This document shows positions 10,344 through 38,640 of a stretch of DNA of 48,611 nt, piece by piece. The DNA lies in NCBI GenBank assembly GCA_964526265.1, contig CAZGIL010000002.1, positions 1-48,611 on the forward strand, given 5' to 3'. This stretch comes from Candidatus Woesearchaeota archaeon. Its GTDB lineage: Archaea > Nanobdellota > Nanobdellia > Pacearchaeales > GW2011-AR1. Every line of letters begins with the position of its first letter. The stretch's first letter is position 1. Both the position numbers and the translations under genes were made by a program. Below the pieces are notes generated by a model. It searched no databases, was not told the origin of the DNA, and saw nothing but the letters and a program-made list of their open reading frames with translations.

Positions 10344-10580
10344 GCCCCTGTCGTATAGAGGCCAAGTACGCCACCCTCTCAAATTAGAAATTGGCATTTG
10401 GATTCAAATGCCCAGAGGAGAGGTGATCTAACTCGATGAGAGCGATGGTCTAGCATCTCAATGCAGCCACTCTTTTGAGTTGTAGTGCGGGAATTCGTAC
10501 TATTTAGGGAAAACCAAAACGCGGAGTAAATCCGCATTTAGGGAACGGTGGTAACCCGAGTTCAAATCTCGGCGGGGGCA
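10344..10580 (+). tRNA. tRNA-Glu (anticodon CUC) interrupted by a ~164-nt intron (about 10382..10545)
   Basis: Acceptor GCCCCTG/CGGGGGC, D arm GTAT-AGAGGCCAA-GTAC, 5' anticodon stem CCACC + CTCTCA at 10371..10381. The matching 3' stem GGTGG appears only at 10547..10551. T arm CCGAG-TTCAAAT-CTCGG. The intron position is assumed to be the canonical 37/38. Confidence 0.7.
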
Positions 10581-10629
10581 TAATACCTTTATGGCAGATT
10601 TCGTGGGCATCAATTTGCCCTTAAATTTA
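10570..10629 (+). repeat. att-type direct repeat copy 1 (tRNA-Glu 3' end plus ~50 nt downstream)
   Basis: 54/60 identical to 37502..37561 by hand alignment. The first 12-13 nt (cggcgggggcata) also recur at 33149 and 38628. Confidence 0.8.
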
Positions 10630-10722
10630 ACTTAGATGGGGCTAGTTCTTTAGATTTATAAATACCTCTACAAATTGATATAGACATCAAGGTATAGAAG
10701 TTAATTTGTCGATACATTTGTT

Positions 10723-10881
10723 TTATTCTTCCTTATCTTCGTATTCAGCCAAAAGCTCTTTTCCTTCTTCAGAATCAAAGTCCACAAAATCTATGCTTGG
10801 CTTTTCCCTATCAACTTTTCTGAATTGCTTAAGCCTTTTATCTATAGTGTATCCCTTGAACTCCGGCAATTTGTTAACCAT
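10723..10881 (-). CDS. Small acidic protein (52 aa), translationally coupled to the upstream RHH gene
   Basis: Hand-translated MVNKLPEFKGYTIDKRLKQF...AEYEDKEE. GGAGGT RBS 5-10 nt upstream of the ATG. Below the ORF-track cutoff. Confidence 0.35.
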   Translation of the reverse strand: MVNKLPEFKGYTIDKRLKQFRKVDREKPSIDFVDFDSEEGKELLAEYEDKEE

Positions 10882-10883
10882 TT

Positions 10884-11078
10884 TTACCTCCCGTAAGATT
10901 TATTTAAGATTGTCTGAATCTTCTCAAGAATATTCTCAATTCTTATTAGAGGAGGATTTTCTATCAATTTCTGCCTACAGAATTCACAAAGAGAAAGATT
11001 ATACTCTTTTGCTTCTTTTTCTAATCTTTCTTTAAGTTCTGTTTCCAGCCATAGATGTATTTGTGCATTCTTTTTCAT
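10884..11078 (-). CDS. Ribbon-helix-helix (CopG/MobC-like) DNA-binding protein
   Basis: 64 aa. IHLWLETELKERLEKEAKEYNLSLCEFCRQKL fits a beta-strand/helix/helix RHH pattern. Confidence 0.5.
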   Translation of the reverse strand: MKKNAQIHLWLETELKERLEKEAKEYNLSLCEFCRQKLIENPPLIRIENILEKIQTILNKSYGR

Positions 11079-11161
11079 TTTGTTTTGTTATGAGCATATC
11101 CAACTTTGCATTAATATTATTAATTATTATAATTATTCTTTCAAAAGTATCAGATTCTAAT

Positions 11162-12307
11162 TTAGTTTCCAATTTGAGAAATCCTCCTGTTGGCAATTTC
11201 AATATATTTTTTATTTAATTCAAAACCTAAGAAATTCATGCCTAATTTTTTAGCAACAATAGCAGTAGTGCCAGAACCCATGAAAGGATCAAGAACTAAT
11301 CCTGGCTCAAATCCTGCATTACAATTGCAGCTTAGAACAACTCTTTCTTTTACTTTTGAGCTATAGCCCCTTTCATTGTAATTTTTTATTTCTTTATCAG
11401 AAGCCTTTCTATCTATGCTTTTTAATCTGCCTTCTTTAACATCCCTGACTCTTAGATTAAATGAATAAGGGCTGTTTCTTTTTTCTATGATTAATCTAGG
11501 AACACCACATCTCTTACAAATTTTATCAGGACATCCAGCCTTAATACAGAATTCTGGCAATGTAGCTGGAAACATGGCATAATGCTCTTCTTTACTTGGT
11601 TCAAGAGGGAACATTATACAATTACCAGGATTTTTCCCCTTGGAGTTTGGAATATATAGTCTCTTTTCACCATAATTTCCCTTACCATCTCTTTGACGAA
11701 ATAGCTTATTTCTAGGCAATTCTTTGTAAGGTATTCTTATGTTATCCAAATTAAAATAATATTTTTTATTTTTTACGAATAGAAATAAAGATTCTGAATT
11801 TGTATTTAATCTATCTGAAACAGCAGAAGGCATTACAGCACCTAGAGAAAATTTAGTTTTAAAATTACATATCTGCTTAACCCATGTTATATCATTTCTT
11901 AAAATTAATCCCAAATCATCCTGACATTGCATAGCGATTCTAAAAGGAATTAATAGTCTTTGTTTCTCTTGAAGCCAGTTAGATTTTAAGTTTCCTTCAA
12001 TTTTTTGGTATTTCTTAATTAACTTGCCTTTAGTTCCACAAGTAATGTTTGTATAATAAGAATCTCCCAGATTAAGCCAAATAGTTCCTGTTGGCTTTAA
12101 TACTCGCTTGCATTCTCTCATAATATCAACTATTTTTCTTATATAACAAGCAGGATCTAACTCCAAGCCTATCTGACCTTCAATTCCATAATCCCTTAAT
12201 GCCCAGTAAGGCGGAGAAGTTACAATACAATCAACACTATTCTCTTTTAGTTCTCTTAATCCAGAAAGAATATCAACATGATAAATTTTGTTTTCTTGGA
12301 TTTGCAT
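11162..12307 (-). CDS. Beta-class DNA methyltransferase (N4-cytosine or N6-adenine), orphan
   Basis: Motif IV DCIVTSPPYW is N-terminal and motif I VLDPFMGSGTTA is C-terminal (beta permutation). There is a Cys-rich insertion (CPDKICKRCG ... CNCN). No adjacent restriction endonuclease was recognised. Confidence 0.85.
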   Translation of the reverse strand: MQIQENKIYHVDILSGLRELKENSVDCIVTSPPYWALRDYGIEGQIGLELDPACYIRKIVDIMRECKRVLKPTGTIWLNLGDSYYTNITCGTKGKLIKKYQKIEGNLKSNWLQEKQRLLIPFRIAMQCQDDLGLILRNDITWVKQICNFKTKFSLGAVMPSAVSDRLNTNSESLFLFVKNKKYYFNLDNIRIPYKELPRNKLFRQRDGKGNYGEKRLYIPNSKGKNPGNCIMFPLEPSKEEHYAMFPATLPEFCIKAGCPDKICKRCGVPRLIIEKRNSPYSFNLRVRDVKEGRLKSIDRKASDKEIKNYNERGYSSKVKERVVLSCNCNAGFEPGLVLDPFMGSGTTAIVAKKLGMNFLGFELNKKYIEIANRRISQIGN

Positions 12308-12431
12308 AAAATCTCTATCTGATTATTTCTTAAATATCCCCTCGTGAAATTTTTCATAGAAATTTACATAGAAACTTTTCTATGAATTTTTTCACGTAGT
12401 TCTATTTAAAAAACAGAGCAATGAAAAATTT

Positions 12432-12602
12432 ATGAAAAACGAAATTGACATTTGTATTTTTTGTAAAAAAGAGCTTGAGGAATTTGAGGAAGATGTTTGT
12501 GATTCCTGTAAGCAATTCATGAGGATAAAATATCCTACAACTAAATGTCTGGAGGAACAAATAAGATGCCACAAAAGAAACGCAAAAAAGCGAAAGCAAT
12601 AG
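12432..12602 (+). CDS. Small zinc-ribbon-like protein (56 aa, CxxC...CxxC)
   Basis: Hand-translated MKNEIDICIFCKKELEEFEEDVCDSCKQF... Overlaps the start of the pilin-like gene. Below the ORF-track cutoff. Confidence 0.3.
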   Translation: MKNEIDICIFCKKELEEFEEDVCDSCKQFMRIKYPTTKCLEEQIRCHKRNAKKRKQ

Positions 12603-12901
12603 TGTTGCCAATTGTATTGTGTTTGGCTATGTTTGCACTGCAACTTGTTTTAGTAAGTGCAGCAGCAAATCCAACATACGACCAAATTTTGCAGCCAATA
12701 CAAGCTGTTTACGACTTAGTGAAGTATGCTGTGACAATTATAGCAGGATTAGTCTTGCTATTTGCAGGCATTACATACGTTATGTCTGGCTCTGACCCTG
12801 GAAAGAGAGAGCAAGCCAAGAATATGATAATGTATGTGATAATTGGCTTAGCAGTAATTTGGGCAGCACCGCTTATCGTAAAACTGGTAATGGGGAGCTA
12901 G
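12566..12901 (+). CDS. VirB2/TrbC/CedA1-like pilin candidate
   Basis: Lys-rich N-terminus, signal-like hydrophobic segment ending in AAA, then two hydrophobic helices separated by a short charged loop (SGSDPGKREQAKN). GGAGG lies 8 nt upstream of the ATG at 12566 (the ORF track starts at 12545). First gene of the VirB4 cluster. Confidence 0.5.
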   Translation: MPQKKRKKAKAIVLPIVLCLAMFALQLVLVSAAANPTYDQILQPIQAVYDLVKYAVTIIAGLVLLFAGITYVMSGSDPGKREQAKNMIMYVIIGLAVIWAAPLIVKLVMGS

Positions 12902-12903
12902 AA

Positions 12904-14271
12904 ATGAAAAGCCAAATTGTTTTGTTTATAGCTTTAGCCCTGCTCCTACCCTCAGCTATTGCATTTAATTGCAATAGTTTGAGTGGTGGAGATTTAGAAG
13001 TCTGCAGTTCTATTCAAAATACTAATCTTAGTCAGACAGACAAGGATTTGTTAATTTCAGATATTTTTAATCCAAATAAAACAACTCCTGATTTTGATTT
13101 TGTTTATCAGTGGAATACTAATTTGAATATTGCAAACAGCCCAGATGGGAGAATTTATTCTTCAGGAACTATAAATAGTGCATGGATTAAAATTATTAGC
13201 TTAATGCCTTCAATAATTGAAAATAATACCCTTTATTCTTCAAATTCAGGAAAATTGTTGACTGCTTATAGTTATAATTATCAACTTCCATCTGGAACTA
13301 TCTCGGGAGATTGTAGAACTTATTATTCTTTATCAAGCAAAACCGAGCAATTGAATGTTTATGTGAATAACAATCTTATAGGGCATAACAAATTAACTGC
13401 GTTTAATAATTTAAATCAGGAAAATCTTAATCTTAAGTCTGAATTAGTAATTAATTTACAGTATAAGGTAGATCATTACATAAACAGAAGACATTGCAGC
13501 GAATATGATCGTGACGGAAACTGCATAAGGCATTATTACAGATGCGAATTCTCTTATACAGAGTATAGAACAGACAGCTTAACAATTAATGATCAATTAA
13601 ATGCAAAACTCTATCAAAATCAGCAAAAAAGTTTATTTAAGATAACTAATAAATATTATGGCGTAACTCAGGGAATTTTGCAAGCTGACAATTACACAAA
13701 TCTGATTTTAAGTTTTAACAATTCAGAATATAAGTATAGTAAGTATATTTACTCATTAGATTACTCCTTACCCTACTATGTTTTAACAATAAAAGCAGAG
13801 CCAGTAGAAATTATCAATTTTAATAACATTCATGTTGACAAGCAAAATTCCAGCTTTTACTTTACTGTTGCAGATAATTCAAAGTGCAAGATACAACTAA
13901 ATGACTTTTTTAGTTCAAAACTATTCCCTTGCGATTTAAGTTTTAATGAGATTAATTTTTCCATAAGAACAGACAAGACTAATTATTTTGATAATGATAC
14001 CATTAAAGTTTATATCTCTCCAGATAACCTTCTTGTAAGCTTAACTTATGCAAATAAAACTATAACTGCGAAGAATTATACAGAGTTTAAATCAATTCTT
14101 TATGAAAATAAAATCTCTGCAAAAGTAGGAGATAAAGAACAAGTAACTTTAATTAATATAAACAAAAGAGAAGATTTTGATACTCTCTATCAATTAGTCA
14201 GCTTATTTTTTGTAGGATATATCTGCTATAAGGCATCTAAGCAATATATTTCTAAATGGAGAGTAGCATGA
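12904..14271 (+). CDS. Secreted Asn/Tyr/Ser-rich protein with C-terminal TM anchor, unknown function
   Basis: Signal peptide MKSQIVLFIALALLLPSAIA, many NxS/T sequons, C-terminal hydrophobic anchor LVSLFFVGYICY. ATGA stop/start overlap with the next gene. Confidence 0.5.
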   Translation: MKSQIVLFIALALLLPSAIAFNCNSLSGGDLEVCSSIQNTNLSQTDKDLLISDIFNPNKTTPDFDFVYQWNTNLNIANSPDGRIYSSGTINSAWIKIISLMPSIIENNTLYSSNSGKLLTAYSYNYQLPSGTISGDCRTYYSLSSKTEQLNVYVNNNLIGHNKLTAFNNLNQENLNLKSELVINLQYKVDHYINRRHCSEYDRDGNCIRHYYRCEFSYTEYRTDSLTINDQLNAKLYQNQQKSLFKITNKYYGVTQGILQADNYTNLILSFNNSEYKYSKYIYSLDYSLPYYVLTIKAEPVEIINFNNIHVDKQNSSFYFTVADNSKCKIQLNDFFSSKLFPCDLSFNEINFSIRTDKTNYFDNDTIKVYISPDNLLVSLTYANKTITAKNYTEFKSILYENKISAKVGDKEQVTLININKREDFDTLYQLVSLFFVGYICYKASKQYISKWRVA

Positions 14272-15152: not shown

Positions 15153-15153
15153 A

Positions 15154-18267: not shown

Positions 18268-18268
18268 A

Positions 18269-19392: not shown

Positions 19393-19393
19393 A

Positions 19394-21398: not shown

Positions 21399-21411
21399 AC
21401 TTGTCTATTTT

Positions 21412-22541: not shown

Positions 22542-23453
22542 TTAAGTTAAACTAAAATTATTCTTTCCTGTTTTCTTCAGAATTTTGTCTGGATTTACCT
22601 CAATTCCTTTCCCATCAATAATTTTCATTTCTACAATTTCCTTTTTGAAGCCAACACCTCTCATTTTTAAAATTTCAATTGCAGTGGTCCTCCTTCCTGA
22701 ATCATAAATAACATTATACAAAACAATGATTCCATCAGATAAAAATGAAACAGCTTCTCCCTGTTCTTGGAATGTAGTTCCTATATGTGAGGGAGAAGAA
22801 ACTTCTCTGATTAAAAAATTAGTTATTTTATTTTTTTCCAAGTACCTAAATAATTGTTCCATGTAAATCCTAAATCTGCTTTCTTCTCCTGAAAATGCAG
22901 ATGCAATGCTTGTCAGAGAATCAATAACTACAAAATCTGGCTTAAAATCATCTGGAAAAAGCATGGGCTCTACCTCAATTAAAAGTTCTTTTTTAGCAGC
23001 ACTTAATAATGCTTCAATGCTCCTTGAAACATCTATTGCATCAAATCTTGTTATCCTTAACAAGCCTTTTTTAACAAACTCTTTTGATTTCCATCCAAAA
23101 CCACCCATATGTTCAATTAATTGCTCTTCTGACTCTTCAAAACTCATATAAAGGCATTTTTTTCCTTTCTTGCATAATTCATTGACAGTAGCGAGGCAAA
23201 AAACAGTTTTTCCGCTTCCAGGACCTCCTTCAACTAAAACAGATACTCCATTTGGAATTCCCCTATCTTTTGCAAATAAAGAGTCAAAACCTTTAATGCC
23301 TGTTCTTAGAAATCTATCGTCGGTTTTAATCTTTTTTTTAAATTTTTCTCTTTTCAGTTTTTTTGCAGGGATTTCTTTTTTATTTTTCTTCCTGCCTAAA
23401 ATTTTTCCTGCTTTTCCTCGCCCTCTTTTTTTTGCCATCTTATTAAATAACAT
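22542..23453 (-). CDS. KaiC/RadA-like RecA-superfamily ATPase with Lys-rich N-terminal tail
   Basis: GIKGFDSLF...VLVEGGPGSGKT (Walker A) and FVVIDSL (Walker B). Single KaiC-like domain. The first ~50 aa are highly basic. Confidence 0.75.
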   Translation of the reverse strand: MLFNKMAKKRGRGKAGKILGRKKNKKEIPAKKLKREKFKKKIKTDDRFLRTGIKGFDSLFAKDRGIPNGVSVLVEGGPGSGKTVFCLATVNELCKKGKKCLYMSFEESEEQLIEHMGGFGWKSKEFVKKGLLRITRFDAIDVSRSIEALLSAAKKELLIEVEPMLFPDDFKPDFVVIDSLTSIASAFSGEESRFRIYMEQLFRYLEKNKITNFLIREVSSPSHIGTTFQEQGEAVSFLSDGIIVLYNVIYDSGRRTTAIEILKMRGVGFKKEIVEMKIIDGKGIEVNPDKILKKTGKNNFSLT

Positions 23454-24005: not shown

Positions 24006-24998
24006 ATGTTAAAATTAAATAAGGGGGTGTTAGTTGCTATAATTGTATTTTCAATTATTTCTTTAGTTTTTGCTTTAACATTTATTGACAAATCTCAATC
24101 TGATTTTGATAAAGGAACTTATAATCAAACATTGTATAATTCAACAAACACTGCAGTTCAGCTCAATCTTTCTTATAATAACGGGACTTATACGAGCCAG
24201 ATTTTTTCAACAGGAAGCAATGTTTCCTTGAATAATTTAAGCTGGACATACCAGAGAATCCAATGCCCCGCAAACATGTCTTATATTAACAAGTTGAATG
24301 GATATTGCATTGACCAGTATGAAGCTTCAATGCCTTCTGCAAATTCAACAACAATAGGAAATTCAACTGATGTTGCAAGAATAAATAATCCTGGAACAAT
24401 GATGGCTGTTTCTCAAGGAGGTGTTATTCCCTGGGTTTCTGTATCTGCAAATTCAGCAAGAACTGCCTGCTCAAATGCAGGCAAGCGTTTATGCACAGAT
24501 GAAGAGTGGCTTGGTGCTGCAAACATTCAAGGAATTTATTATAATCTGCCATCAGACTTAGCAAGTTCTCCTTATTTCTGCGTTACTGGTTCAGGAACTT
24601 GGTGCGCGGGCAATTCATACTCTTCTGGCAATGCATGCGATACAGGAAGAAATAAAACAGACGGGATATCAAGCTGTGTCTCATCAGAAGGTGTTTATGA
24701 TATGACTGGAAATGTCTGGGAATGGACTAATGAAACAGTCAGTTATACTAAGCCATGCAATCCAACTGTATCTGGATATTGCTATTGGAATGGAACAAAT
24801 TGGGGAACTTCAACAATAGCCAAATATGGAAATGATGGAGTTTATTTTTTAGATAATTCAACTGCAAGAACAGGTTACGCGGTCAGACGTGGTGGCAGTT
24901 GGGATCCTGGGGCTGATGCTGGTCCCTTTTGCGCGCATTTGCGTCTTCTCCCCACTGATGCGGGCAGCAACATTGGCTTTCGCTGTTGCAGTAGTTAA
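24006..24998 (+). CDS. DGR target (variable) protein: signal-anchored, FGE-sulfatase/C-type-lectin-fold domain with C-terminal VR
   Basis: GVYDMTGNVWEWTNE and RGGSWD...GFRCC are hallmarks of the FGE/SUMF1-type CLec fold used by many DGR targets. The last 119 nt are the VR. Confidence 0.85.
   Translation: MLKLNKGVLVAIIVFSIISLVFALTFIDKSQSDFDKGTYNQTLYNSTNTAVQLNLSYNNGTYTSQIFSTGSNVSLNNLSWTYQRIQCPANMSYINKLNGYCIDQYEASMPSANSTTIGNSTDVARINNPGTMMAVSQGGVIPWVSVSANSARTACSNAGKRLCTDEEWLGAANIQGIYYNLPSDLASSPYFCVTGSGTWCAGNSYSSGNACDTGRNKTDGISSCVSSEGVYDMTGNVWEWTNETVSYTKPCNPTVSGYCYWNGTNWGTSTIAKYGNDGVYFLDNSTARTGYAVRRGGSWDPGADAGPFCAHLRLLPTDAGSNIGFRCCSS
24878..24996 (+). repeat. DGR variable repeat (VR)
   Basis: 105/119 identical to the TR at 26396..26514. 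All 14 differences correspond to adenines in the TR. Confidence 0.9.
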
Positions 24999-25076
24999 TC
25001 TGGGTTTTGGAATCTGGAAATCCAATCGTCGCAAAAAAATTTGGGAGAAAAGAGGAAAACAAAAAGAGGATGAAAA

Positions 25077-25934
25077 ATGAATGAAGAAAAGAATGAAACA
25101 CATATAGCTATATTCAATGGAAAAAAGATAAGGAGAAAACTTGTAAATGATAAATGGTTTTTTTCTGTTGTAGATGTAGTTGGAGTTTTGACTGAAAGTG
25201 AAGACCCTAGAAAATATTGGAATAAGTTAAGTCAAAGACTGCGAGAAGAGGGAAGTGAGGTGGTGACATTTTGTCACCAACTGAAATTAAAGGCCGGAGA
25301 TGGTAAGGAATATGAAACAGGCTGTGCGGATACAGAAGGCATTTTTAGAATAATCCAGTCTATTCCTTCTAAAAAAGCTGAGCCATTTAAGAGATGGCTG
25401 GCTAGAGTGGGCTACGAAAGGATACAAGAAATAGAAAATCCCGAGCTTGCTCAGGAAAGAATGAAAACACTTTATGAATTAAAAGGATATTCTAAGGAAT
25501 GGATAGACAAAAGATTAAGAGGTATTGCAGTGAGGCAGGATTTAACTGATGAGTGGAAAAACAGGGGGGTGGAAGAAGAGAAAGATTTTGCTATTTTAAC
25601 AGCAGAAATATCTAAAGCAACTTTTGGAATGTCTCCTGCTGAATATAAAAAGTTTAAAGGGCTGAAAAATGAAAATTTAAGAGACCACATGACTGATTTA
25701 GAATTAATATTTAATATGCTTGGAGAAGCTTCTACCTCAGAGATTGAAAAGGCTCAAAATCCAAATACTTTTGATGAACATTTAGAGGTTTCAAATAAGG
25801 GTGGAAATGTTGCAAAGATTGCAAGAATAAAACTAGAACAGGAAACAGGAGAGCCTGTTGCAAGCGAAGAAAACTATTTGGATGAACCTGAAAAACTGAA
25901 GAAAAAGAAAAAAATTTTAGAGGTTAATGCATAA
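25077..25934 (+). CDS. Bro-N domain / DinD-like (DNA-damage-inducible protein D-like) protein
   Basis: N-terminal IFNGKKIRRKLVNDKWFFSVVDVVGVLTES (Bro-N-like), then KRWLARVGYERIQEIENPELA...WIDKRLRGIAVRQDLTDEW, typical of DinD-family proteins. Confidence 0.65.
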   Translation: MNEEKNETHIAIFNGKKIRRKLVNDKWFFSVVDVVGVLTESEDPRKYWNKLSQRLREEGSEVVTFCHQLKLKAGDGKEYETGCADTEGIFRIIQSIPSKKAEPFKRWLARVGYERIQEIENPELAQERMKTLYELKGYSKEWIDKRLRGIAVRQDLTDEWKNRGVEEEKDFAILTAEISKATFGMSPAEYKKFKGLKNENLRDHMTDLELIFNMLGEASTSEIEKAQNPNTFDEHLEVSNKGGNVAKIARIKLEQETGEPVASEENYLDEPEKLKKKKKILEVNA

Positions 25935-26022
25935 AAATGATTAAAACAATCAGATACAGCCCAGCTTTTTCAGTGGGGGGGCGAAGCACTTTTGCGTTCC
26001 CTGCAAAAACGAGGCAATTACA

Positions 26023-26370
26023 ATGATAGAAGATATGAAGATTTTTCACAATACATACGAATTCATTAAATGGATTCATACATTATTAAATAAGTTTCCA
26101 AAATCAGAAAAATACACAATGGCTCAAAAAATAGAAAATACTTCATTAACTTTCTTGGAAAGCATTATACAATCAAATAATGATTTCGACAAAAAGCAAT
26201 CTTTGCAAAAAGCAATTATTGAATTAGACAAATTAAGAATTTTTTTCAGGCTTTCTAAAGACTTGCAATTTATCAGCTTTGAACAATATGAATATGGCTC
26301 TAAATTAATAGATGAAATAGGCAGAATGCTGGGAGGTTGGTACAAGAAATACTATAATATTCCTGTATAG
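26023..26370 (+). CDS. avd: DGR accessory variability determinant (Avd-like four-helix-bundle protein)
   Basis: 115 aa. FHNTYEFIKWIHTLLNKFPKSEKYTMAQKIENTSLTFLESI matches the S23-intervening-sequence/Avd family pattern. Lies immediately upstream of the TR. Confidence 0.7.
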   Translation: MIEDMKIFHNTYEFIKWIHTLLNKFPKSEKYTMAQKIENTSLTFLESIIQSNNDFDKKQSLQKAIIELDKLRIFFRLSKDLQFISFEQYEYGSKLIDEIGRMLGGWYKKYYNIPV

Positions 26371-26395
26371 GAATGGGTTGGATTGTGATTAACAG

Positions 26396-26514
26396 CGCGG
26401 TCAAACGTGGTGGCAATTGGGATAATGGGGCTGATGCTGGTCCCTTTTGCGCGAATTTGAATAATCTCCCCACTGATACGAACAACAACATTGGCTTTCG
26501 CTGTTGCAATAGTT
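26396..26514 (+). repeat. DGR template repeat (TR), transcribed as part of the DGR RNA
   Basis: Adenine-rich master copy of the VR (28 A). Lies between avd and the RT gene. Confidence 0.9.
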
Positions 26515-26628
26515 CCCAAAGCCAGATTCATATCTTCACGGAGATAATGAACAGTGCAAGAGAACTACATCAATTCAAATCCAAGCTGAAGAAGCTGAAT
26601 ATCAAAATTAAAACCGGCGGTTAGTAAG

Positions 26629-27708
26629 ATGAGGCAAATGCCGATTGAACCCTGCTGGTTTAATAATAAAAAACAAAAAATGAAAACACATAAAAATTTA
26701 TTTCAGGAAGTTTGTGAATTTGAAAACCTTTATAATGCTTACTTAAAAGCAAGAAGAGGCAAGAATAATTCTGCAGAAGTTCTTAAGTTTAATTATAATT
26801 TGGAAAATGAATTATTAAAACTGCAATGTGAATTAAGAAGCCAAACTTATAAAACAGGGAAATACAGGCATTTTATTATCTTGGAGCCAAAAGAGAGAAA
26901 AATTTCCGCTTTGCCTTTCAGAGACAGGGTTGTTCACCATGCTATTTGCACTGTTATTGAGATAATATTTGAAAAGAAATTTATTTATGATTCTTATGCC
27001 TGCAGAAAAGGAAAAGGCACTCATGCTGGAGCAGACAGAATTCAAAAGTTCATAAGAAAAGCCAATAATTACTATGTTTTAAAGTGCGATGTTTCAAAGT
27101 ATTTTCCAAGTGTAAATCATGAAATTCTAAAAAAACTCATAAGAGAAAAAATAGCAGACAAAAAACTCTTACAATTATTAGATAAAATAGTAGATAGTTC
27201 AGAAGAACAGAATATTCAAAGTTCTTTACAAAAAGGGATTCCTATCGGCAATTTAACCTCGCAGCTTTTTGCTAATATCTACCTTAATAAACTGGATGAA
27301 TATGTAAAATATGAGCTGAAAATAAACTACTACCTCCGTTATATGGATGATTTTGTCATAATGCATGAATCTAAAATATATTTGCATGAAGTAAAGGAAA
27401 AAATTATATTCTTCTTTGCTTCAATGAAATTAACACTTCACCCAAAAAAAGCAAATATTTTTCCTGTTGCATTAGGCATTGATTTTCTTGGTTATAGGAT
27501 TTTTAATAATCATAGATTAGTCAGAAAAAGCACTGTAAAAAGGTTTATAAAAAGTGTGAAAGGAAAAATAAAAAAATATAACCATCGCAATATTAATTTT
27601 GACAAGTTAATGGAGTCATTTAATTCATGGGAAGCTTATATGGACCAGGGAAATTCTTATAATTTAAAAAAAAGCTTGAACGAGGAGTATTTTAAAAATG
27701 TTATGTGA
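26629..27708 (+). CDS. DGR reverse transcriptase
   Basis: RT motifs include IGNLTSQLFAN (the DGR-specific I/LGxxxSQ) and YMDDFVIM (YxDD). The likely true start is the ATG at 26680 (MKTHKNLF). Confidence 0.9.
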   Translation: MRQMPIEPCWFNNKKQKMKTHKNLFQEVCEFENLYNAYLKARRGKNNSAEVLKFNYNLENELLKLQCELRSQTYKTGKYRHFIILEPKERKISALPFRDRVVHHAICTVIEIIFEKKFIYDSYACRKGKGTHAGADRIQKFIRKANNYYVLKCDVSKYFPSVNHEILKKLIREKIADKKLLQLLDKIVDSSEEQNIQSSLQKGIPIGNLTSQLFANIYLNKLDEYVKYELKINYYLRYMDDFVIMHESKIYLHEVKEKIIFFFASMKLTLHPKKANIFPVALGIDFLGYRIFNNHRLVRKSTVKRFIKSVKGKIKKYNHRNINFDKLMESFNSWEAYMDQGNSYNLKKSLNEEYFKNVM

Positions 27709-30889: not shown

Positions 30890-30890
30890 A

Positions 30891-31901: not shown

Positions 31902-33062
31902 TTATGCGTGAACCATTCCAAATTTAGTATTAGTAATATTGAGTCTTCCAAGAACAATTTTTAATTCTTCTTCAACCCGATTTAGTCTTTCCTGTATGAT
32001 TTCTTTCTCTTTCTCGGATTTTGCAAGCTTCTGTTCAATTTCAGTTTTAGTAATATCAACTAGTAAATCATCTTCACTTATTGTGTCTTTCATGCCTAAT
32101 AACTCGGAATAATAATGAATCTTATCTGAATTTTTCCAACCAAATCTATATTTCAATGCAGATTCAGATTTATATCTAGGCAACCAATAACAACAAGCAT
32201 TATGCCTAAAATCATACATAGTTAGTTCAGAATACTTTTGTCCCGCGAGGCTTTCAATATCTCCAAAAAGTTTTCTTCCTAACCTTTTCAAATATCTGTT
32301 AACAACAACAGGAGATATTGGAAATAAGTAATCGTTTGAAGTCAAATTATTATCCTTGATATAATCTTTTAATAAATTAGTACAAAGAAGCAATTTTATT
32401 CTTCTGCCAAAAGTCTTGCTTATTTCATCTCTTATATTAAGTTCCTTACAATCTTGGGATAAATCTGCTACTCTGATATTAACCAACTCTGTAGGGGCTC
32501 TTATTCCAGTATCAAATAAGAACATCATCAATACTTTATAACCGTATTTTGCCTTTTCACATAGTTCCCTTATCTGTTCTTCTGTTAAATATACCCAGTC
32601 TGGCTTATTCCCAGAAGTATCCAAGTCAATTGTAATGTCTGGGATATCAATTCCTTTCTTTCTATTTACTTTTTGATACCAGTGCCAGAATGCCTTAAAA
32701 TTTTTAGCATAATCCTGGACTGATTTGTAGATTTTATTTTCTCTTGTCTTTATTTCTCCATTTCTCATAGCTGAAAATAAATCTAATAACTGTTCTTCTT
32801 TTAATTTGCTTGTATCTAATAATTGATATCTTCTTTCAACTTGAGACATTAAGAAAAATAATCTTGATTTTAGATTATTCAACCTCATACAACTTCTACT
32901 CCCTTTTACACTTGTACTGGATATATTGATTCCTTTCTCCATGTCAAATAAGTAGTTCAGAAGCAATCCTGAATTGATCTGGCTTATTCCAGGAATGCCT
33001 GACCTAAATTTCTCTTTCCAAGCTTGCCATCTTGCGTCATGTTTATATGGATCTATTTTCAT
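31902..33062 (-). CDS. int: Tyrosine recombinase / integrase
   Basis: FDTGIRAPTEL (box I Arg), YDFRHNACCYW (His-x-x-Arg region), GWKNSDKIHYY (catalytic Tyr region). Intact, with the att repeat 87 nt upstream of the start. Confidence 0.8.
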   Translation of the reverse strand: MKIDPYKHDARWQAWKEKFRSGIPGISQINSGLLLNYLFDMEKGINISSTSVKGSRSCMRLNNLKSRLFFLMSQVERRYQLLDTSKLKEEQLLDLFSAMRNGEIKTRENKIYKSVQDYAKNFKAFWHWYQKVNRKKGIDIPDITIDLDTSGNKPDWVYLTEEQIRELCEKAKYGYKVLMMFLFDTGIRAPTELVNIRVADLSQDCKELNIRDEISKTFGRRIKLLLCTNLLKDYIKDNNLTSNDYLFPISPVVVNRYLKRLGRKLFGDIESLAGQKYSELTMYDFRHNACCYWLPRYKSESALKYRFGWKNSDKIHYYSELLGMKDTISEDDLLVDITKTEIEQKLAKSEKEKEIIQERLNRVEEELKIVLGRLNITNTKFGMVHA

Positions 33063-33148
33063 GTTTTGTCGAGGGCAATTAACTTTTTATATGTCTGGTA
33101 TAAAGTTTATACCGATGCCCCTAAAATCTGCCAAGAAGGTTTCGATAT

Positions 33149-33161
33149 CGGCGGGGGCATA
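33149..33161 (+). repeat. att-type direct repeat copy 2 (cggcgggggcata)
   Basis: Identical to the tRNA-Glu 3' end at 10570..10582. The flanking gtttcgatat loosely resembles the tRNA T-arm. Confidence 0.6.
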
Positions 33162-33304
33162 CATACTCCATGGTCTTTTAGTGGGATCTCGGTAGGTTTT
33201 TGGATTATTTTGTCGAGATAGTCCAGTATCTCTTTAAGTTTTAGTAATATTTCTTCAGTATTCATAGATAGTTTAGAAAGAGGTTAATAATAAGTCACGA
33301 TAGG

Positions 33305-34057
33305 TTAGTTTTTTGCTTGTTTCCAAAGAAGATGAAAGTATTCCCTATAACTATCTGCATTTTCTTTATTTTTTATCATAAATGCAATAGGGTTCTTTAT
33401 CCATAGAGCAATAATAACCTTGTCTTTGTAAATATTAGCTGCAGATCTTGTAACTTGTGGAAGATATCTTACTTTTGTTAATGGTAATTTTTCCTCGTCT
33501 GCTCCGGTAGTCTCTCTTACATCTTCATTGAAAATTATCTTTGTCTTTATACCTTTCTTGAGTTTTTTCTTATTAAATTGTATAAAGAAATCTCGAGTCC
33601 ATGTAAGAGGTAATCCTCCTCTAGCCCCAAACACATAATATTCTTCTCCTTTCTCAAGTGTCCTTAGAATATCATCAAAAGCTGCTTTAATTCCCTTATA
33701 TCCTTCATAGATTTTTGCTTCAGTTTTATCTGTAGGAATTTTTCTTTTTTTGTAAAGCAGAGGGATTATATTCTTTATGTTTTTTGACTGATCTCTAAGT
33801 TTATCTTCTTTATCCTTAATGAAATCTATTAAGATGTCTGGCTCTGAAGCTTGGTAATATTTTTTATTTTCTCTTATAACATAAGATACCAAACCATGTC
33901 TTATAAGTAAGTCTAATGAATGATAGACTGTTGAACTTTGAAGACCTGTTTTTTTAATAATAATTCCTGTTGTTGAAGGCTCTAGCTCTAATAAAATTAG
34001 ATATACCTTTATCTCTGAATCTGTTAATCCAATATCTCTTAATGTTTGTTCTATCAT
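33305..34057 (-). CDS. TrmB-family transcriptional regulator
   Basis: N-terminal LGLTDSEIKVYLILLELEPSTTGIIIKKTGLQSSTVYHSLDLLIRHGLV is the TrmB wHTH signature. Confidence 0.75.
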   Translation of the reverse strand: MIEQTLRDIGLTDSEIKVYLILLELEPSTTGIIIKKTGLQSSTVYHSLDLLIRHGLVSYVIRENKKYYQASEPDILIDFIKDKEDKLRDQSKNIKNIIPLLYKKRKIPTDKTEAKIYEGYKGIKAAFDDILRTLEKGEEYYVFGARGGLPLTWTRDFFIQFNKKKLKKGIKTKIIFNEDVRETTGADEEKLPLTKVRYLPQVTRSAANIYKDKVIIALWIKNPIAFMIKNKENADSYREYFHLLWKQAKN

Positions 34058-34155
34058 TAATAATTTTAATCTTTTAGGGTTTAAAAATTTAACTATAACT
34101 CTCCAACTATTGGAAAGCAGTAGTTTATTAATATACTCTTTTCAAAGAAAATACA

Positions 34156-35244
34156 ATGAATTTGGAATACAGAATGGATGGGAAATTTAGAATGCCCTGC
34201 AAGTTGAGAGATGGAACTATGCAAGATAACTTTATTCTTCATCTCTTTAGTTTTCCGACAAATAATCCATTTTTGGCTCCAGAGGAACATTTTCATGTTA
34301 TTACCTTGGGAAATATTGAAAGAAAAAAAGATTTACTTATGAGAATAGAATCTGCGTGTACTTATGCCCATTTATATGGTTCTCAGTTATGTGATTGCCA
34401 GTATCAAAGAGACGAATCTTTACTAAGAATCTCGCAGGAAAATCGAGGGATGTATATTTATTGCCTTGATCAAAATGGAAGAGGTACTGGAATAGTTAAT
34501 CATATTAAAGCATATCAAACTGAACAAGATCTAGGTCTTGATACTGTTGAAGCCCATAAGCATCTGGGTTTCCCAGATGATGCAAGAGATTATGCTCCTA
34601 TAATAAAGATACTTAATCATTTTAGTATTTCTTCTGTTAGATTAATGACAAATAATCCTAAAAGATTAAAGGCATTGCAAGAAGCAGGTATTCAAGTTAA
34701 AAGAGTTCCATTGCAGGGACCACTTCATAAATATAATATTGGAGAATTAAAGACTAAACAACAAAAGTTGGGACATCTCTATGATTATGATTTTTCTTCG
34801 CAAGTTCCTATATTGGAGAAAGATGAAGAATGGATGAAGTTTGCTATTGAGCTAGCAAAAAGCAAGGGATTAGTTCAGGATAAACCTCTTGTGGGAGCTG
34901 TTGTAACCAATAATGGAAAATTTGTAAGTGATGGCTATGGAGTTCAAGGAACACATATGCATGCAGAAGTAATGGCTATTATGAATGCGGGGAAAAAAGC
35001 AAAAAATGGGACTTTGTATACAACTTTAGAACCTTGCATTGATGCATATACCTTTCCGTCCTGTTGCAGAAAAGCAATAGAATCTGGAATTTCTGAAGTT
35101 GTTTTTGGATCTATTGACCCTCATCCGATAGTTGATGGTAGGGGAATCAGAACATTAGAAAATGCTGGAATCAAAACAAGAAGTGTGTTAACAGAAGAAA
35201 CTGATAAATTAATTAGCGAATGGATTAAAAAATGGAGAAGTTAA
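34156..35244 (+). CDS. Fusion: GTP cyclohydrolase II (RibA) + pyrimidine deaminase domain of RibD (no reductase domain)
   Basis: RibA zinc triad ESACTYAHLYGSQLCDC, QNGRGTG, RLMTNNPKRL. Then HAEVMAI ... TLEPC...PSCC, the CDA-type zinc motif as in the RibD N-domain. Confidence 0.75.
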   Translation: MNLEYRMDGKFRMPCKLRDGTMQDNFILHLFSFPTNNPFLAPEEHFHVITLGNIERKKDLLMRIESACTYAHLYGSQLCDCQYQRDESLLRISQENRGMYIYCLDQNGRGTGIVNHIKAYQTEQDLGLDTVEAHKHLGFPDDARDYAPIIKILNHFSISSVRLMTNNPKRLKALQEAGIQVKRVPLQGPLHKYNIGELKTKQQKLGHLYDYDFSSQVPILEKDEEWMKFAIELAKSKGLVQDKPLVGAVVTNNGKFVSDGYGVQGTHMHAEVMAIMNAGKKAKNGTLYTTLEPCIDAYTFPSCCRKAIESGISEVVFGSIDPHPIVDGRGIRTLENAGIKTRSVLTEETDKLISEWIKKWRS

Positions 35245-35245
35245 T

Positions 35246-35803
35246 ATGAAAATAGGAGTATATGGTTCTGCATCTGGGAAAATTTCAGAGGTGGTTAGAA
35301 ATAAAGCAAGAATAATAGGACAACAAATAGCATTAAGAGGACATGATTTGATAACTGGGGCATGTTGTGGTTTGCCTTATGATGCAGTAGTTGCTGCTTG
35401 TCAAGTCCACAACAGAAAGGGAAAAATAATTGGTTACTCTCCGGCAATAAGTTTAGCAGAACATAAAAAATTTGAAATGCCTACAGATGGATTTGATATT
35501 ATTAATTTTATTGATGAAATTTATATTGATCTTCCAAAAAGTTCAAGATTCAAATTAAGAAATGTTCTATCTGTTAATGCCTGCGATACAGCAGTGTTTA
35601 TTGCTGGGGGAATAGGTACAACGAATGAGTTCACAGATGCTTATGATCTTGGAAAAAACATCGGAATTCTTCTAAACACTGGTGGGTTTTCTGATTTAGC
35701 TAAGGAAATTGTAGATGCTCTCGGGAGAGAAAAGAATCTAAGAGTCGTATATTCCACTAATCCCAAAAAATTGATTGGAACACTTGAAAATGAACACAAA
35801 TAA
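35246..35803 (+). CDS. LOG/TIGR00725-like Rossmann-fold protein (putative nucleotide N-ribohydrolase)
   Basis: MKIGVYGSAS start and AGGIGTTNEF, matching the LOG-family PGGxGTxxE motif. Confidence 0.55.
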   Translation: MKIGVYGSASGKISEVVRNKARIIGQQIALRGHDLITGACCGLPYDAVVAACQVHNRKGKIIGYSPAISLAEHKKFEMPTDGFDIINFIDEIYIDLPKSSRFKLRNVLSVNACDTAVFIAGGIGTTNEFTDAYDLGKNIGILLNTGGFSDLAKEIVDALGREKNLRVVYSTNPKKLIGTLENEHK

Positions 35804-35930
35804 ATTCACAATAACAAAGAAAATAGCCAAGCATGGCAATCAAGCTGTAATTTGCATTCCAAAATTACTTGAAGAACAACTTAAACCCGGAACTATTGCA
35901 GAAATAACTATTGAAGTTCTTGAGGAATAA
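35790..35930 (+). CDS. Small SpoVT/AbrB-like protein (46 aa)
   Basis: Hand-translated MNTNKFTITKKIAKHGNQAVICIPKLLEEQLKPGTIAEITIEVLEE. Below the ORF-track cutoff. Overlaps the end of the LOG-like gene. Confidence 0.3.
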   Translation: MNTNKFTITKKIAKHGNQAVICIPKLLEEQLKPGTIAEITIEVLEE

Positions 35931-35932
35931 TC

Positions 35933-37177
35933 TTATTCGGAAAGTTTCTCATTTATCTTTTTAAGATTAAAAAGAATTATCTTCTGCAAATTTTGATATA
36001 GCTTTATATCCTCTCTTTTCTTTGAGCCTTTTGTATAACTAAGATATTCATCAAGCAGGCCAAAAGGAATATCTAAAATAGGAATATCTCTTGATTGCAA
36101 TAAATGAAAAGTAATTAATCTCGTTGTTCTGCTGTTTCCATCTTCAAAAGGATGAATATGCTGAAATTCATTATGGAAGTAGACTGCAAATTTTAATGCT
36201 TCTTCTAATGAAACATTTTTTCTTTTGATAAATTCATTATATTTCTCAAATAACTTTTCAAGCTCTTCTTTTATTTTTTCAGGGAGGGTTGTTTTAAAAT
36301 GAGGATTGCCTTTAATGAAAACATTGATCTTTCTTATGCTTCCAGCAAAAGATGACTGGTGCCTCATTGCTATTTTATGATAATCTAAAATTAATTGAAG
36401 ACTTAGAGGCTTTCTTTCATTTGTATCTTTAAGCATCTGAATCATAGCTTCCTGGTAATTTTTTACTTCATCCACATCAGAAGTCCTTAGGTTTGCAGGG
36501 ATTAACTTATCTTTTAAAATCTTTATTGTATCTGGCAGGGTTATAGGATTGCCCTCTAAAGAAAGACTATGATAAATAAAAGGTATTTCAAATTCATTTA
36601 CTATTCGCTGATATCTTGCTTCATCTTTCTTTTTTAATCTTCTGTAAATATCTAGCTCTTTTTTTATTTCAGGAATGTAACTTTTTTGGCTTTCTGTTAT
36701 AACAGGATGACTATATTCAAAGTAAACCAAAAGGTTGTTAAGTAAAATGTTATAGAATACTTTCGCCCTTAATGGCTTTTCTGAAATAATAAGAATCATG
36801 CCATATTTATTAAGAATTTCAATATATTTCTTTACTGTCCTGGAATTAAGTTTTATAGTTTTAGAGTTAATTTCATCTTTTTGTAACGCTTTGCTAATAA
36901 ATTGCGCGAAGTTTCTATCTAAAATGGAGTTATAATTTATTCCATTCTTTATACAATAGAGAATTAAATTATAAAGTGACTCAGATTTTTTGGACATCTC
37001 TACTTGAAAACCTTCTTTCTTTTTTATTAATAATTTTTCTTTTGTAAGCTCTCTCAAGTATTTATGGATTACATGATATTCCTTCTCATCTTTGTTAAGC
37101 TTTTTAACAACCTCAATTGGCTTAAGCGAAGCCCTATTCTTATAAACAATTTCAAATACGTCATACTTTGTAACCAT
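35933..37177 (-). CDS. Fic-domain protein (AMPylase family) with N-terminal winged-helix region
   Basis: HPFEDGNSRTTRL matches the Fic motif HPFx(D/E)GNGRxxR. Confidence 0.8.
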   Translation of the reverse strand: MVTKYDVFEIVYKNRASLKPIEVVKKLNKDEKEYHVIHKYLRELTKEKLLIKKKEGFQVEMSKKSESLYNLILYCIKNGINYNSILDRNFAQFISKALQKDEINSKTIKLNSRTVKKYIEILNKYGMILIISEKPLRAKVFYNILLNNLLVYFEYSHPVITESQKSYIPEIKKELDIYRRLKKKDEARYQRIVNEFEIPFIYHSLSLEGNPITLPDTIKILKDKLIPANLRTSDVDEVKNYQEAMIQMLKDTNERKPLSLQLILDYHKIAMRHQSSFAGSIRKINVFIKGNPHFKTTLPEKIKEELEKLFEKYNEFIKRKNVSLEEALKFAVYFHNEFQHIHPFEDGNSRTTRLITFHLLQSRDIPILDIPFGLLDEYLSYTKGSKKREDIKLYQNLQKIILFNLKKINEKLSE

Positions 37178-37501
37178 AGGATATACACTTATTTACAGTT
37201 TATAAATCTTTCTATATTGTATAGAAAGTTACACTTTATGTAACTTTAAGTGCTATATATATTTGATTTATGCATTTATATCTATAAATTGTAGTATTTG
37301 TTACATATTTTGTAACTAATCGTACAAAATAGTTATATGTGTTTTTTTCTGTCACTTTCATGTCGTCGCCTGTTTTTATAAACTCTGCCAGCATCGGAGA
37401 ATTAGGAAAGTTAAACCTTTTCAAGAATACTAAAGGTTAAAGCCCGGCATGGGTTGTTGAGGTTGAAAAAACCCCAGCAGATACCATAATGGTAAGACAC
37501 A

Positions 37502-37561
37502 CGGCGGGGGCATTATACCTTTTTGACTGATTTCGTGGGCATCAATTTGCCCCTGAATTTA
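37502..37561 (+). repeat. att-type direct repeat copy 3 (long form)
   Basis: 54/60 identical to 10570..10629. Weaker similarity continues for ~70 more nt. Confidence 0.8.
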
Positions 37562-37661
37562 TTTATTCGAGCTAGATTCAAGGCTATTTAAAGAGCTCTA
37601 TAAATTGATATAATAATTAGAAAGTAGAAAGATTTATATTATTAAAGGATGATTCTAAAAT

Positions 37662-37893
37662 ATGGGAATACAACAAGGTGGCTATAATGAGAAGGATCTA
37701 GAGATGGGGGAATCTTGTGCTAAATATTTAGATAAGAGGAGTTGAGAGAAATGGATTACCTTATGATGGTATCGAACTTAAAGTCTTACAAGAATCTGCC
37801 CCTGTTTTTAGAGATGAGTTAAAAGAAGATTTAAAGGTAGTAAGATTATTATTTGAATTAAAACGTGATGTTTTTAGCCCTTCTGAAGAATAA
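37662..37893 (+). pseudogene. Possible frame-disrupted small ORF
   Basis: The ATG-initiated 27-codon ORF stops at 37743..37745. An open frame without a start continues from 37744 to the TAA at 37891..37893. Confidence 0.2.
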
Positions 37894-37923
37894 TTTGTTA
37901 AGCTTAGAAATTACAAAAATTAA

Positions 37924-38202
37924 TTATTTCTTATAAATCACATCATGATGGTCGAAATCTGTGAAGAAAATTAAGTCTGATGATTTTTCATACTTGAATA
38001 CAAGAACAAAACTGCCAACATGAACTCGCTTGTATTCTTTTAAATTATATCTTAAATTCTTATAATGCTCAATATCTGAAGAGTTTAATACCTCATTCAT
38101 TTTATTAAAAAGATTTTCATAGAGTTGTTTGTCTTTCTTTTGCAATTTATCTAGAATTCTATCAAAATTCTTGCTTGTCTTATATTGCCTTGACATCTTC
38201 AC
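37924..38202 (-). CDS. RelE/ParE-superfamily toxin
   Basis: 92 aa. FDRILDKLQKKDKQLYENL...LKEYKRVHVGSFVLVFKY...IFFTDFDHHDVIY is the typical RelE/ParE fold pattern. 4-nt overlap with the upstream small gene. Confidence 0.6.
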   Translation of the reverse strand: MKMSRQYKTSKNFDRILDKLQKKDKQLYENLFNKMNEVLNSSDIEHYKNLRYNLKEYKRVHVGSFVLVFKYEKSSDLIFFTDFDHHDVIYKK

Positions 38203-38444
38203 CTTTTTTCTATTCTTTTTCTTAATTCATCAATAGATTTAAAGGTTTTGCCATACCCTTCTTTTTCTATTCTCTTCAATTTCTCCAAGTATTCTGGTCT
38301 TAATTCAGGCTCTAGAATATTTTCCCCACATTCAATAACTATTTTAGCTATTGCTTCGCTCTTTGTTTTCAGATTATATCTAGCTTTCACTATGTTTAAG
38401 ATTTGGTTTGCTTCCTTAGGAATCTCAATCATCGCTTGTACCAT
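38199..38444 (-). CDS. Antitoxin candidate (small helical protein)
   Basis: 81 aa. Directly upstream of the RelE-like gene and overlapping it. Confidence 0.45.
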   Translation of the reverse strand: MVQAMIEIPKEANQILNIVKARYNLKTKSEAIAKIVIECGENILEPELRPEYLEKLKRIEKEGYGKTFKSIDELRKRIEKR

Positions 38445-38627
38445 TTTTCTTAGTGTATATTTAGTATAAATATCATATATATGTTGAGTATATAAGCTTT
38501 TCTATACTCTAATATCTATTTCTTGTAGTAGAGCTCTTTAAATATAGCAGATCCTATCGAATTCTAATAAATTAAATACAATTAAAAAAAATTAGTCCCC
38601 TTGATTATGCCAAAAGGGCTATTGTTT

Positions 38628-38640
38628 CGGCGGGGGCATA
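38628..38640 (+). repeat. att-type direct repeat copy 4 (cggcgggggcata), presumed outer island boundary
   Basis: Exact 13-nt match to the tRNA-Glu 3' end. Housekeeping-type genes resume to the right. Confidence 0.55.

Follow-up and report, generated by a model that had tools for sequence, protein, structure and literature searches.

A tRNA 3′ end that recurs several times in the DNA downstream of its gene raises the question of whether that DNA arrived as one integrated element or as several. This question was addressed for a 48,611-nucleotide stretch of Candidatus Woesearchaeota archaeon (GenBank assembly GCA_964526265.1, contig CAZGIL010000002.1, positions 1 to 48,611; the whole stretch is referred to below as the window), in which a tRNA-Glu(CUC) gene is followed by a 28-kb island punctuated by copies of its own 3′ end. 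A preliminary description of the locus had proposed that three integrated elements, here called modules A, B, and C, lie in tandem at this one tRNA. The analysis reported here makes it probable that the tRNA-Glu(CUC) 3′ end is the attachment (att) site of a family of tyrosine-integrase elements and that the island is a head-to-tail array of three att-delimited modules (Table 1). Tyrosine-recombinase elements are known to form arrays in both archaea and bacteria (PMC6563490), and accretion involving cis-mobilizable elements (CIMEs) is known in bacteria (PMC5704250).

Core Repeats and Inverted Arms

The window contains exactly four copies of the 12-mer CGGCGGGGGCAT, all of them on the + strand, as the preliminary description had noted. 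Shuffled sequences give an expectation of 0.01 matches, and four copies were reached in none of 100 shuffles, ruling out a chance origin of the repeats. No additional match in the window appeared when one mismatch was allowed, and eight extra matches appeared with up to three mismatches, only one of which (the tRNA's own 5′ acceptor strand) lies within or at the edges of the island. Copy 1 comprises 3 nt of the T-stem followed by the acceptor strand (7 nt), the discriminator A, and one nucleotide beyond it. It represents the true tRNA 3′ end because ARAGORN, run with introns allowed, calls a tRNA-Glu(CUC) gene at 10344–10580 and because homologous tRNA-Glu(CUC) genes are found in 22 other DPANN genomes. 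Default ARAGORN and Rfam reported no tRNA at 10570, since the 164-nt intron causes default tRNA tools to overlook this gene.

The cores are accompanied by inverted arms, which extend the comparison well beyond 12 nt. The left arm of module A (ACCTTTATGGCAGATTTCGTGGGCATC) matches the reverse complement of 33114–33140, next to copy 2, at 23 of 27 positions (p about 0.001 against random 40-mers), and the sequences before copies 3 and 4 hold looser reverse-complement matches to ACCTTTATGGCAGATTTCGTGGGCATC. For copies 1 and 3, the repeat extends to 54/60 identity (90%), with collinear similarity to about 130–145 nt (z = 18), which bears out the homology proposed earlier between the A and C left arms. 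Module C is bounded by inverted repeats of roughly 150 nt (left, about 37514–37650; right, about 38480–38627) homologous to the A arms; its left arm matches the reverse complement of its right arm at z = 6.4, and the A left arm matches the same sequence at z = 5.5. Measured by hand on the sequences, the arm-motif TGG is located 10–11 nt after the core in the left arms (modules A, B, and C, as well as L031, L021, and L051, where L numbers denote loci and contigs from other genomes and metagenomes) and 14–15 nt before the core in the right arms (A, B, C, and L051). The arms begin 3–9 nt inside the core repeats. Module B has weak arms: its TGG lies at +10 with the conserved spacing, its left arm resembles the A left arm at +65 to +150 (z about 3), and a right-arm motif is found at 37472–37492.

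Each copy thus has a defined junction type: copy 1 reads tRNA-core-arm (attL), copies 2 and 3 read arm-core-arm, and copy 4 reads arm-core-host (attR). The succession of attL, two arm-core-arm junctions, and attR is the pattern expected of a head-to-tail array. The site on a circular element would read inverted arm, 8–9 nt, 12-nt core matching the tRNA end, 3–4 nt, and inverted arm. A pseudo-tRNA reading of the sequence upstream of copies 2–4 was rejected, as the spliced-tRNA alignment was unconvincing and the motif present there is the reverse complement of the left-arm motif. Three 52-aa open reading frames (ORFs) near the arms, tested as a shared small protein, proved not to be homologous, and scanning viral contigs for the core plus left-arm pattern and for the integrase yielded no match.

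An array of this architecture could be built by repeated use of one site. Recombination within the core would insert an element and regenerate the tRNA, with the integrase presumably cutting inside the 12-mer and the arms acting as its putative binding sites; further integrations into the resulting attL or attR would then build the head-to-tail array, in which all internal junctions would be arm-core-arm and the outer two would be attL and attR. The integrase of module A could also mobilize B and C in trans. Integration into attL and into attR would give the same junction types, and tiny modules lie between the tRNA and the integrase element in relatives L039 and L040, so that the earlier suggestion that the newest element is closest to the tRNA is not upheld.

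The preliminary description had also offered an alternative, namely, a single 27-kb element bounded by the two long repeats with an internal pseudo-att at copy 2. This is disfavored because the long part of repeat 3 comes after the core, where it forms the left arm of the module that follows and not the right end of a 27-kb element. Copy 2, in turn, has the integrase-arm-core layout that forms the boundary of elements in this family and abuts host genes in L051, and the left arms of A and C are only 78–90% identical, marking them as diverged homologues rather than the two ends of one insertion. The same three observations bear on a broader version of this idea, in which the island functions as one composite element (A+B or A+B+C) that moves via its outermost cores, with copies 2 and 3 as internal relics. 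That copies 1 and 3 bear the longest repeats, that two strain variants preserve the array in full, and that composite excision after accretion is known for ICE–CIME pairs (ICE, integrative and conjugative element; PMC5704250) would all suit a composite element; on balance, it is regarded as distinctly unlikely.

Integrase, Related Elements, and Empty Sites

The preliminary description had placed an integrase in module A alone, next to its right repeat. Indeed, the gene at 31902–33062 is the only integrase gene in the 10.5–38.6-kb interval, and its start codon is 87 nt from copy 2. Residues R188, K216, Y283-x-x-R286, W309, and Y318 are invariant in 12 homologues, and the first His of the HxxR motif is replaced by Tyr in all compared integrases; the enzyme is intact. 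A search of solved structures with this integrase gave no match.

A metagenome scan recovered 35 integrase-homologue loci (35–64% identity), and L031, a Pacearchaeota metagenome-assembled genome (MAG) from Lac Pavin, encodes an integrase about 67% identical to that of the window and has the same target tRNA. Immediately upstream of the integrase and sharing its strand, ARAGORN called a tRNA in 12 of these 36 loci (35 homologues plus L031), specifically tRNA-Asp, -Glu(TTC), -Glu(CUC), -Cys, or -Ser, and several further loci have a tRNA-like 3′ end at this position that ARAGORN left uncalled. Overall, the target tRNAs of integrase relatives are Asp, Glu, Cys, Ser, Leu, and Gln. Where two copies of a direct repeat were found, they measure 12 nt (L052, L048, L049, and L066), 13 nt (L051), or 11 nt (L041), and those of L052, L048, L049, and L051 are positioned on the tRNA, by eye, just as the window repeats are.

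Arrays were also identified in relatives. L052, which has inverted arms beside its cores, carries cores at 1376, 10541, and 11755 and includes an integrase-less 1.2-kb module encoding ParE and MazE. L048 has cores at 9757, 15952, and 16594, with a Fic gene after the third core, and the small modules of L039 and L040 are arm-only units of 82–94 nt between the tRNA and the integrase element. Integrase-bearing relatives carry, in addition, VirB4 (55–65% identity), a pilin, a methylase, and the reverse transcriptase of a diversity-generating retroelement (DGR; 42–66%), and TrmB and Fic homologues occur in the elements of L048, L041, and L050. By this shared gene content, module A belongs to a widespread DPANN element family that combines an integrase, genes resembling those of type IV secretion systems (T4SS), and often a DGR. 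No description of such a family was found in the literature searched.

The comparison with related genomes that the preliminary description had called for revealed unoccupied sites in L026 and L035, so that the refuting condition stated there (relatives with the same 28-kb gene order but no repeats) does not count against the proposal. In L026, the genes for the large and small replication factor C (RFC) subunits and endonuclease III (EndoIII) are followed by tRNA-Glu (+), about 80 nt, and a homologue of the 105-aa gene that flanks the island in the window, whereas in L035 the tRNA 3′ end is 167 nt from the RFC-small gene. In L051, homologues of the 105-aa and 65-aa right-flank genes of the window directly follow attR. 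The genomes with empty sites are distant relatives (flank proteins about 37–84% identical), and no same-species empty site was found. The GC profile suggested earlier as a check likewise separates the island (0.285–0.312) from its flanks (0.355 and 0.343). Thus, the island combines an integrase with its catalytic residues, direct repeats of a tRNA end with the tRNA left intact, and a site that is unoccupied in related genomes; together with the arm-core layout at all four copies and the arrays in relatives, these features sustain the proposal of a three-element tandem array at one tRNA.

The repeats and inverted ends could also be read as the product of a transposase-like staggered-cut insertion of terminal-inverted-repeat elements, in which case the 12-nt repeats would be target-site duplications and not element-borne cores. 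Such a reading would account for a repeat whose length departs little from 12 nt between one tRNA and another (four loci have 12 nt and L051 has 13 nt), for element ends that are inverted repeats, and for insertions that face either way with respect to the integrase gene (the window together with L049 and L051, versus most relatives). It is nevertheless very improbable: the sole recombinase, invariably situated beside an arm, is a tyrosine integrase whose catalytic residues are intact; no Cas1 or DDE enzyme turned up in Pfam scans of most island ORFs; and the arms stop short of the element tips with an asymmetric offset (about 10 versus about 15 nt), fitting a dyad-centered tyrosine-recombinase site. 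Assignment to casposons or other terminal-inverted-repeat elements was rejected on the absence of Cas1 and DDE matches in these scans and on the position of the arms, which start inside the repeats.

Integrase-less Modules B and C

Modules B and C had been described as progressively decayed, a view that the present data do not support. Both are made up of intact ORFs, no integrase fragment was detected in either by tblastn with 12 family integrases, even at E ≤ 10, and integrase-less toxin-antitoxin or Fic modules recur in relatives. B and C may never have had an integrase, by analogy with CIMEs. Bounded by related att sites and devoid of integrase and conjugation genes, module C clearly has the boundaries of a CIME; in module B, the cores are exact and the arm similarity is weak. 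The cargo of module B (34156–37177) looks like defense or conflict genes, as judged from domain matches.

These features also raise the possibility that B and C are native att-flanked cassettes of a CIME-like or miniature kind, lacking an integrase from the outset and carrying toxin-antitoxin, Fic, or defense genes, which the integrase of the family captures and shuffles in trans to give a tRNA-anchored, integron-like array. Consistent with this, integrase remnants are missing from modules whose ORFs are intact, C retains both of its long arms around only a toxin-antitoxin pair, and the internal junctions are all two-armed, like a complete recombination site. Counterparts in relatives include the 1.2-kb ParE/MazE module of L052, the Fic gene after the third core of L048, and the arm-only units of L039 and L040. 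The case is weakened by ascertainment bias, in that only modules with both ends recognizable are seen, and by the fact that neither B nor C has been observed in a second context. Moreover, in contrast to integron cassettes, the modules contain several genes that face in both directions, and retention of a toxin-antitoxin pair after deletion accounts equally well for C. Native cassettes are therefore a credible, if somewhat unlikely, origin for B and C.

Orientation of the Integrase and Observations Weighing Against the Array

Several observations count against a head-to-tail array of integrase-family modules. No excised, circular, or alternative junction was present among the contigs recovered by exact-protein look-ups of seven window proteins; all of these contigs are collinear with the window across copies 1–4, including a strain at 99.4% identity that retains the A–B junction. 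The arms of B are not significant when taken alone. Within module A, no Pfam or PHROG match to a relaxase or type IV coupling protein was found beyond a 64-aa NikA-like accessory protein, with divergent unannotated ORFs as possible carriers; module A thus lacks a recognizable counterpart of two components of a canonical ICE, and conjugative transfer is consequently not established. Finally, module A has its integrase at the end distal to the tRNA, and the core runs in reverse with respect to it, in contrast to L031 and most relatives, in which the integrase adjoins the tRNA and reads away from it.

To explain the distal position of the integrase, a further step must be invoked, for example inversion between the arms or an attP core that has been flipped. 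In L031, the tRNA-proximal arm is collinear with the reverse complement of the A right arm up to the integrase ATG, and therefore the same arm-integrase unit has been joined to oppositely oriented cores. A distal integrase is also found in L051 (a tRNA-Gln element of 6.1 kb whose repeat measures 13 nt) and L049 (tRNA-Leu), and a rough neighbor-joining tree, which carries no support values, suggests at least two independent orientation switches. Arm spacing tracks the core and not the integrase. From these sequence comparisons, we infer that a short arm-core-arm segment, or equivalently the element interior, may invert between the inverted arms.

A more speculative scenario, considered unlikely, joins these elements: the arm-core-arm site would be near-symmetrical with a flippable core, allowing the integrase to reside at either end, and the same integrase would maintain a tRNA-anchored array of small, natively integrase-less cassettes with toxin-antitoxin, Fic, or defense genes, making the island an archaeal integron-like gene-capture platform. 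If true, an integron-like capture platform would be attached to a widespread and undescribed family encoding an integrase, a T4SS, and a DGR. Membership among integrons themselves was rejected, given multigene modules in both orientations, an integrase that is not adjacent to the array start, and junctions that are only loosely attC-like.

Population variants were examined among the recovered contigs. In assembly ERZ27248920 (contigs L008 and L085), the sequence breaks off at 37500 in one contig and resumes at 37550 in the next, the gap corresponding exactly to core 3 and its arm; this break may reflect population heterogeneity or may be repeat-induced. Two further variants concern the neighborhood of the island. 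A contig from sample ERZ27248961 (L073) is identical to the window down to 9885 and diverges inside the 3′ end of a tRNA-Gln gene (window 9827–9899), with 15 nt, ATCCTGGTGGGGCTA, retained at the divergence (L073 12424–12546), which suggests that part of the population may have another element inserted at tRNA-Gln, 0.7 kb upstream of the tRNA-Glu island. The sister contig L001 (ERZ27248937, 99.9 kb), otherwise 100% identical, has a 7.7-kb insertion at window 8772–8780 (L001 10997–18668) encoding an IS240-family DDE transposase, Laminin_G_3 proteins, and a PRC-domain protein.

Cargo of Module A

Module A encodes both a VirB4-class ATPase and a pilus component, as expected of an ICE, and its large unknown proteins received no annotation from PHROGs or PADLOC. 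It also carries a DGR as cargo. In the alignment of the variable repeat (VR) with the template repeat (TR), all mismatches within VR 24878–24996 occur at TR adenines, and the DGR is complete, comprising a reverse transcriptase, a TR/VR pair with adenine-specific mismatches, a VR at the C-terminus of the target protein, and Avd.

Table 1. Features of the tRNA-Glu(CUC) island and its right flank, in window coordinates
Feature	Coordinates	Strand	Basis and remarks
tRNA-Glu(CUC) gene, integration target (attB side of attL)	10344–10580	+	Exon 1 10344–10382, intron 10383–10546, exon 2 10547–10580
Core copy 1 (attL), tRNA 3′ end plus 1 nt	10570–10581	+	12-mer match, tRNA call
Module A, integrative element of conjugative type, 22.6 kb, GC 0.312	10582–33148		Pfam, composition, gene set recurring in relatives
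Module A left inverted-repeat arm	10585–10611	+	Homology with C left arm continues to about 10725
NikA-like gene (64 aa)	10884–11078	-	Pfam
N6/N4 DNA methylase gene	11162–12307	-	Pfam
VirB2-like pilin gene	12545–12901	+	PF18895, PF04956
VirB4/TraG-like ATPase gene, 1045 aa, N-terminal PrgI-like segment	15130–18267	+	PF19044, PF12846, PF12666
KaiC-like ATPase gene	22542–23453	-	Pfam
DGR, cargo of module A	24006–27708	+	Pfam; repeat family; VR/TR alignment
FGE-sulfatase/C-type-lectin-fold target gene, VR 24878–24996	24006–24998	+	Pfam
Bro-N protein gene	25077–25934	+	Pfam
Avd gene	26023–26370	+	Pfam
TR	26396–26514	+	Direct repeat family with VR
DGR reverse transcriptase gene	26629–27708	+	Pfam
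Module A tyrosine integrase, 386 aa, start codon towards copy 2	31902–33062	-	PF00589 at 9.7e-11; PHROG 1 integrase
Module A right inverted-repeat arm, integrase-proximal	33114–33140	-	Matches A left arm; collinear with L031 tRNA-proximal arm to integrase ATG
Core copy 2, A/B junction, arm on both sides as in attP site	33149–33160	+	12-mer match
Module B, 4.3 kb, without integrase, GC 0.310	33161–37501		Pfam, PADLOC, arm statistics
TrmB/Csa3-like regulator	33305–34057	-	Pfam/PADLOC
GTP cyclohydrolase II-deaminase fusion	34156–35244	+	Pfam; weak PADLOC dCTPase match; deaminase cytidine/dCMP-type
SLOG protein, SLOG-cluster-4	35246–35803	+	Pfam/PADLOC
Fic protein	35933–37177	-	Pfam; PADLOC PDC-S04 and SoFic matches
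Core copy 3, B/C junction	37502–37513	+	12-mer match
Module C, 1.1 kb, without integrase, GC 0.285	37514–38627		Arms, Pfam
ParE-like toxin	37924–38202	-	Pfam
DUF2683 gene	38199–38444	-	Pfam
Core copy 4 (attR), C right-arm motif before it at 38598–38618	38628–38639	+	12-mer match
Right host flank	38656–39582		Arrestin-like gene 38656–39180 (-); 105-aa gene 39265–39582 (+), where synteny with relatives resumes; Pfam, composition, relatives

Host, Target tRNA, and Right Flank

The flanks of the window encode FEN1, Trm5/TYW2, both RFC subunits, endonuclease III, and an archaeal-type PheRS. A 25-mer spanning the T-arm and acceptor of the window tRNA-Glu matched 26 GTDB genomes, all of them Woesearchaeota, Pacearchaeota, Nanoarchaeota, or unclassified archaeal MAGs, except for one Aenigmatarchaeota MAG and one MAG labeled "bacterium". 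The host is a Woesearchaeota/Pacearchaeota-like DPANN archaeon.

The intron of the target tRNA is a recurrent feature, as 14 of the 22 DPANN loci in which ARAGORN called tRNA-Glu(CUC) have an intron of 14–225 nt at the same position. The window pre-tRNA folds with z = -4.8, its intron being strongly structured, and an Rfam search of the intron region returned nothing meaningful. Stretches of the intron appear, by eye, to be conserved across DPANN relatives L011–L036.

In about half of the related genomes (L018, L022, L024, L028, L032, and L035, contrasted with the window, L011, and L026), tRNA-Glu is inverted with respect to its conserved flanks (EndoIII/RFC on one side and the 105-aa gene plus PheRS on the other), and in every such genome variable DNA lies on the tRNA 3′ side. 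A motif of roughly GAACGAGGGGAACC-GATTCAAATC is conserved about 10–60 nt downstream of tRNA-Glu in L011, L015, L025, L026, and L028; it does not follow any core in the window. Additional copies of the tRNA-Glu 3′ end are present downstream of the gene in L028 (three, at 4414–4766) and L032 (two, at 723 and 3873). These copies lack the arm motif of the window family, and tRNA-Glu is therefore a hotspot for more than one kind of element.

On the right side of the island, the arrestin-like segment after copy 4 has a host-like GC content (0.346), and the arrestin-like gene is absent at this position in relatives. A TGG is also located 10 nt past copy 4 in the host flank (window 38640–38665), with the same spacing as in the left arms; it may be there by chance, may be a B′-type integrase site, or may mark a fourth remnant, one containing the arrestin-like gene. 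A fourth remnant was not adopted, as there is no core to the right of this gene and its GC content is host-like, although the TGG at +10 would fit one.

Discussion

The principle of tandem arrays is established biology, and the closest known analogues of the window are the streptococcal ICE/CIME accretion arrays (PMC5704250) and the archaeal tyrosine-recombinase arrays (PMC6563490). In the arrays of ICESt1/ICESt3 and CIMEs (PMC5704250; ICEberg 2.0, PMC6323972), as in the window, one integrase-bearing element of conjugative type stands in tandem with integrase-less modules, and the modules are bounded by related att sites and separated by direct repeats of the target 3′ end. The window differs from these in its DPANN host, its intron-containing tRNA-Glu target, its 12-nt core with prominent inverted arms, and the lack of an identified relaxase. 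ICEs of Thaumarchaeota and other archaea (PMC6563490) share with the window tyrosine-recombinase integration at tRNA 3′ ends, VirB4 and pilins, and arrays. The window family departs from these elements in its integrase lineage and in the phylum of its host, frequently carries a DGR, and can have its integrase at either end. The ssrA islands of Dehalococcoides (PMC3146451) are similar in that several islands are stacked at one small-RNA gene, each bounded by a direct repeat of the gene 3′ end, but they are bacterial, target a tmRNA, and carry different cargo.

The T4SS-like genes and the DGR of module A also have counterparts in other lineages. The relaxase-poor, MPF-FATA-related T4SS of Patescibacteria (PMC12102498) likewise combine VirB4 with T4SS_pilin/VirB2-like pilins (PF18895, PF04956) and have no detectable relaxase, such that most of these loci, like module A, lack the relaxase and coupling protein of a canonical ICE; they differ in their stable chromosomal context, as opposed to the att-bounded, integrase-bearing archaeal element described here. 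DGRs of DPANN archaea and the CPR (survey in PMC5758913) resemble that of the window in having a reverse transcriptase, Avd, TR/VR pairs with adenine-specific changes, and a C-terminal lectin-fold target. The window DGR differs in being the cargo of a tRNA-integrating, T4SS-encoding element, a combination that was not found described in the literature searched.

What makes the locus of interest is mainly its DPANN host, an element family in which T4SS-like genes and a DGR occur together, the shortness of the core and the inverted arms beside it, and the fact that two orientations are possible. The predicted junctions are precise, and metagenome reads already available can be searched for them. 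Mobile elements have barely been characterized in DPANN archaea; taken with some 35 related loci, this locus delineates a family whose targets are many different tRNA genes, entered via a short, mostly 12-nt core, and which builds arrays including integrase-less toxin-antitoxin, Fic, or defense modules. Such a family offers a tangible means by which genes could flow and surface proteins diversify in these ultra-small symbiotic archaea.

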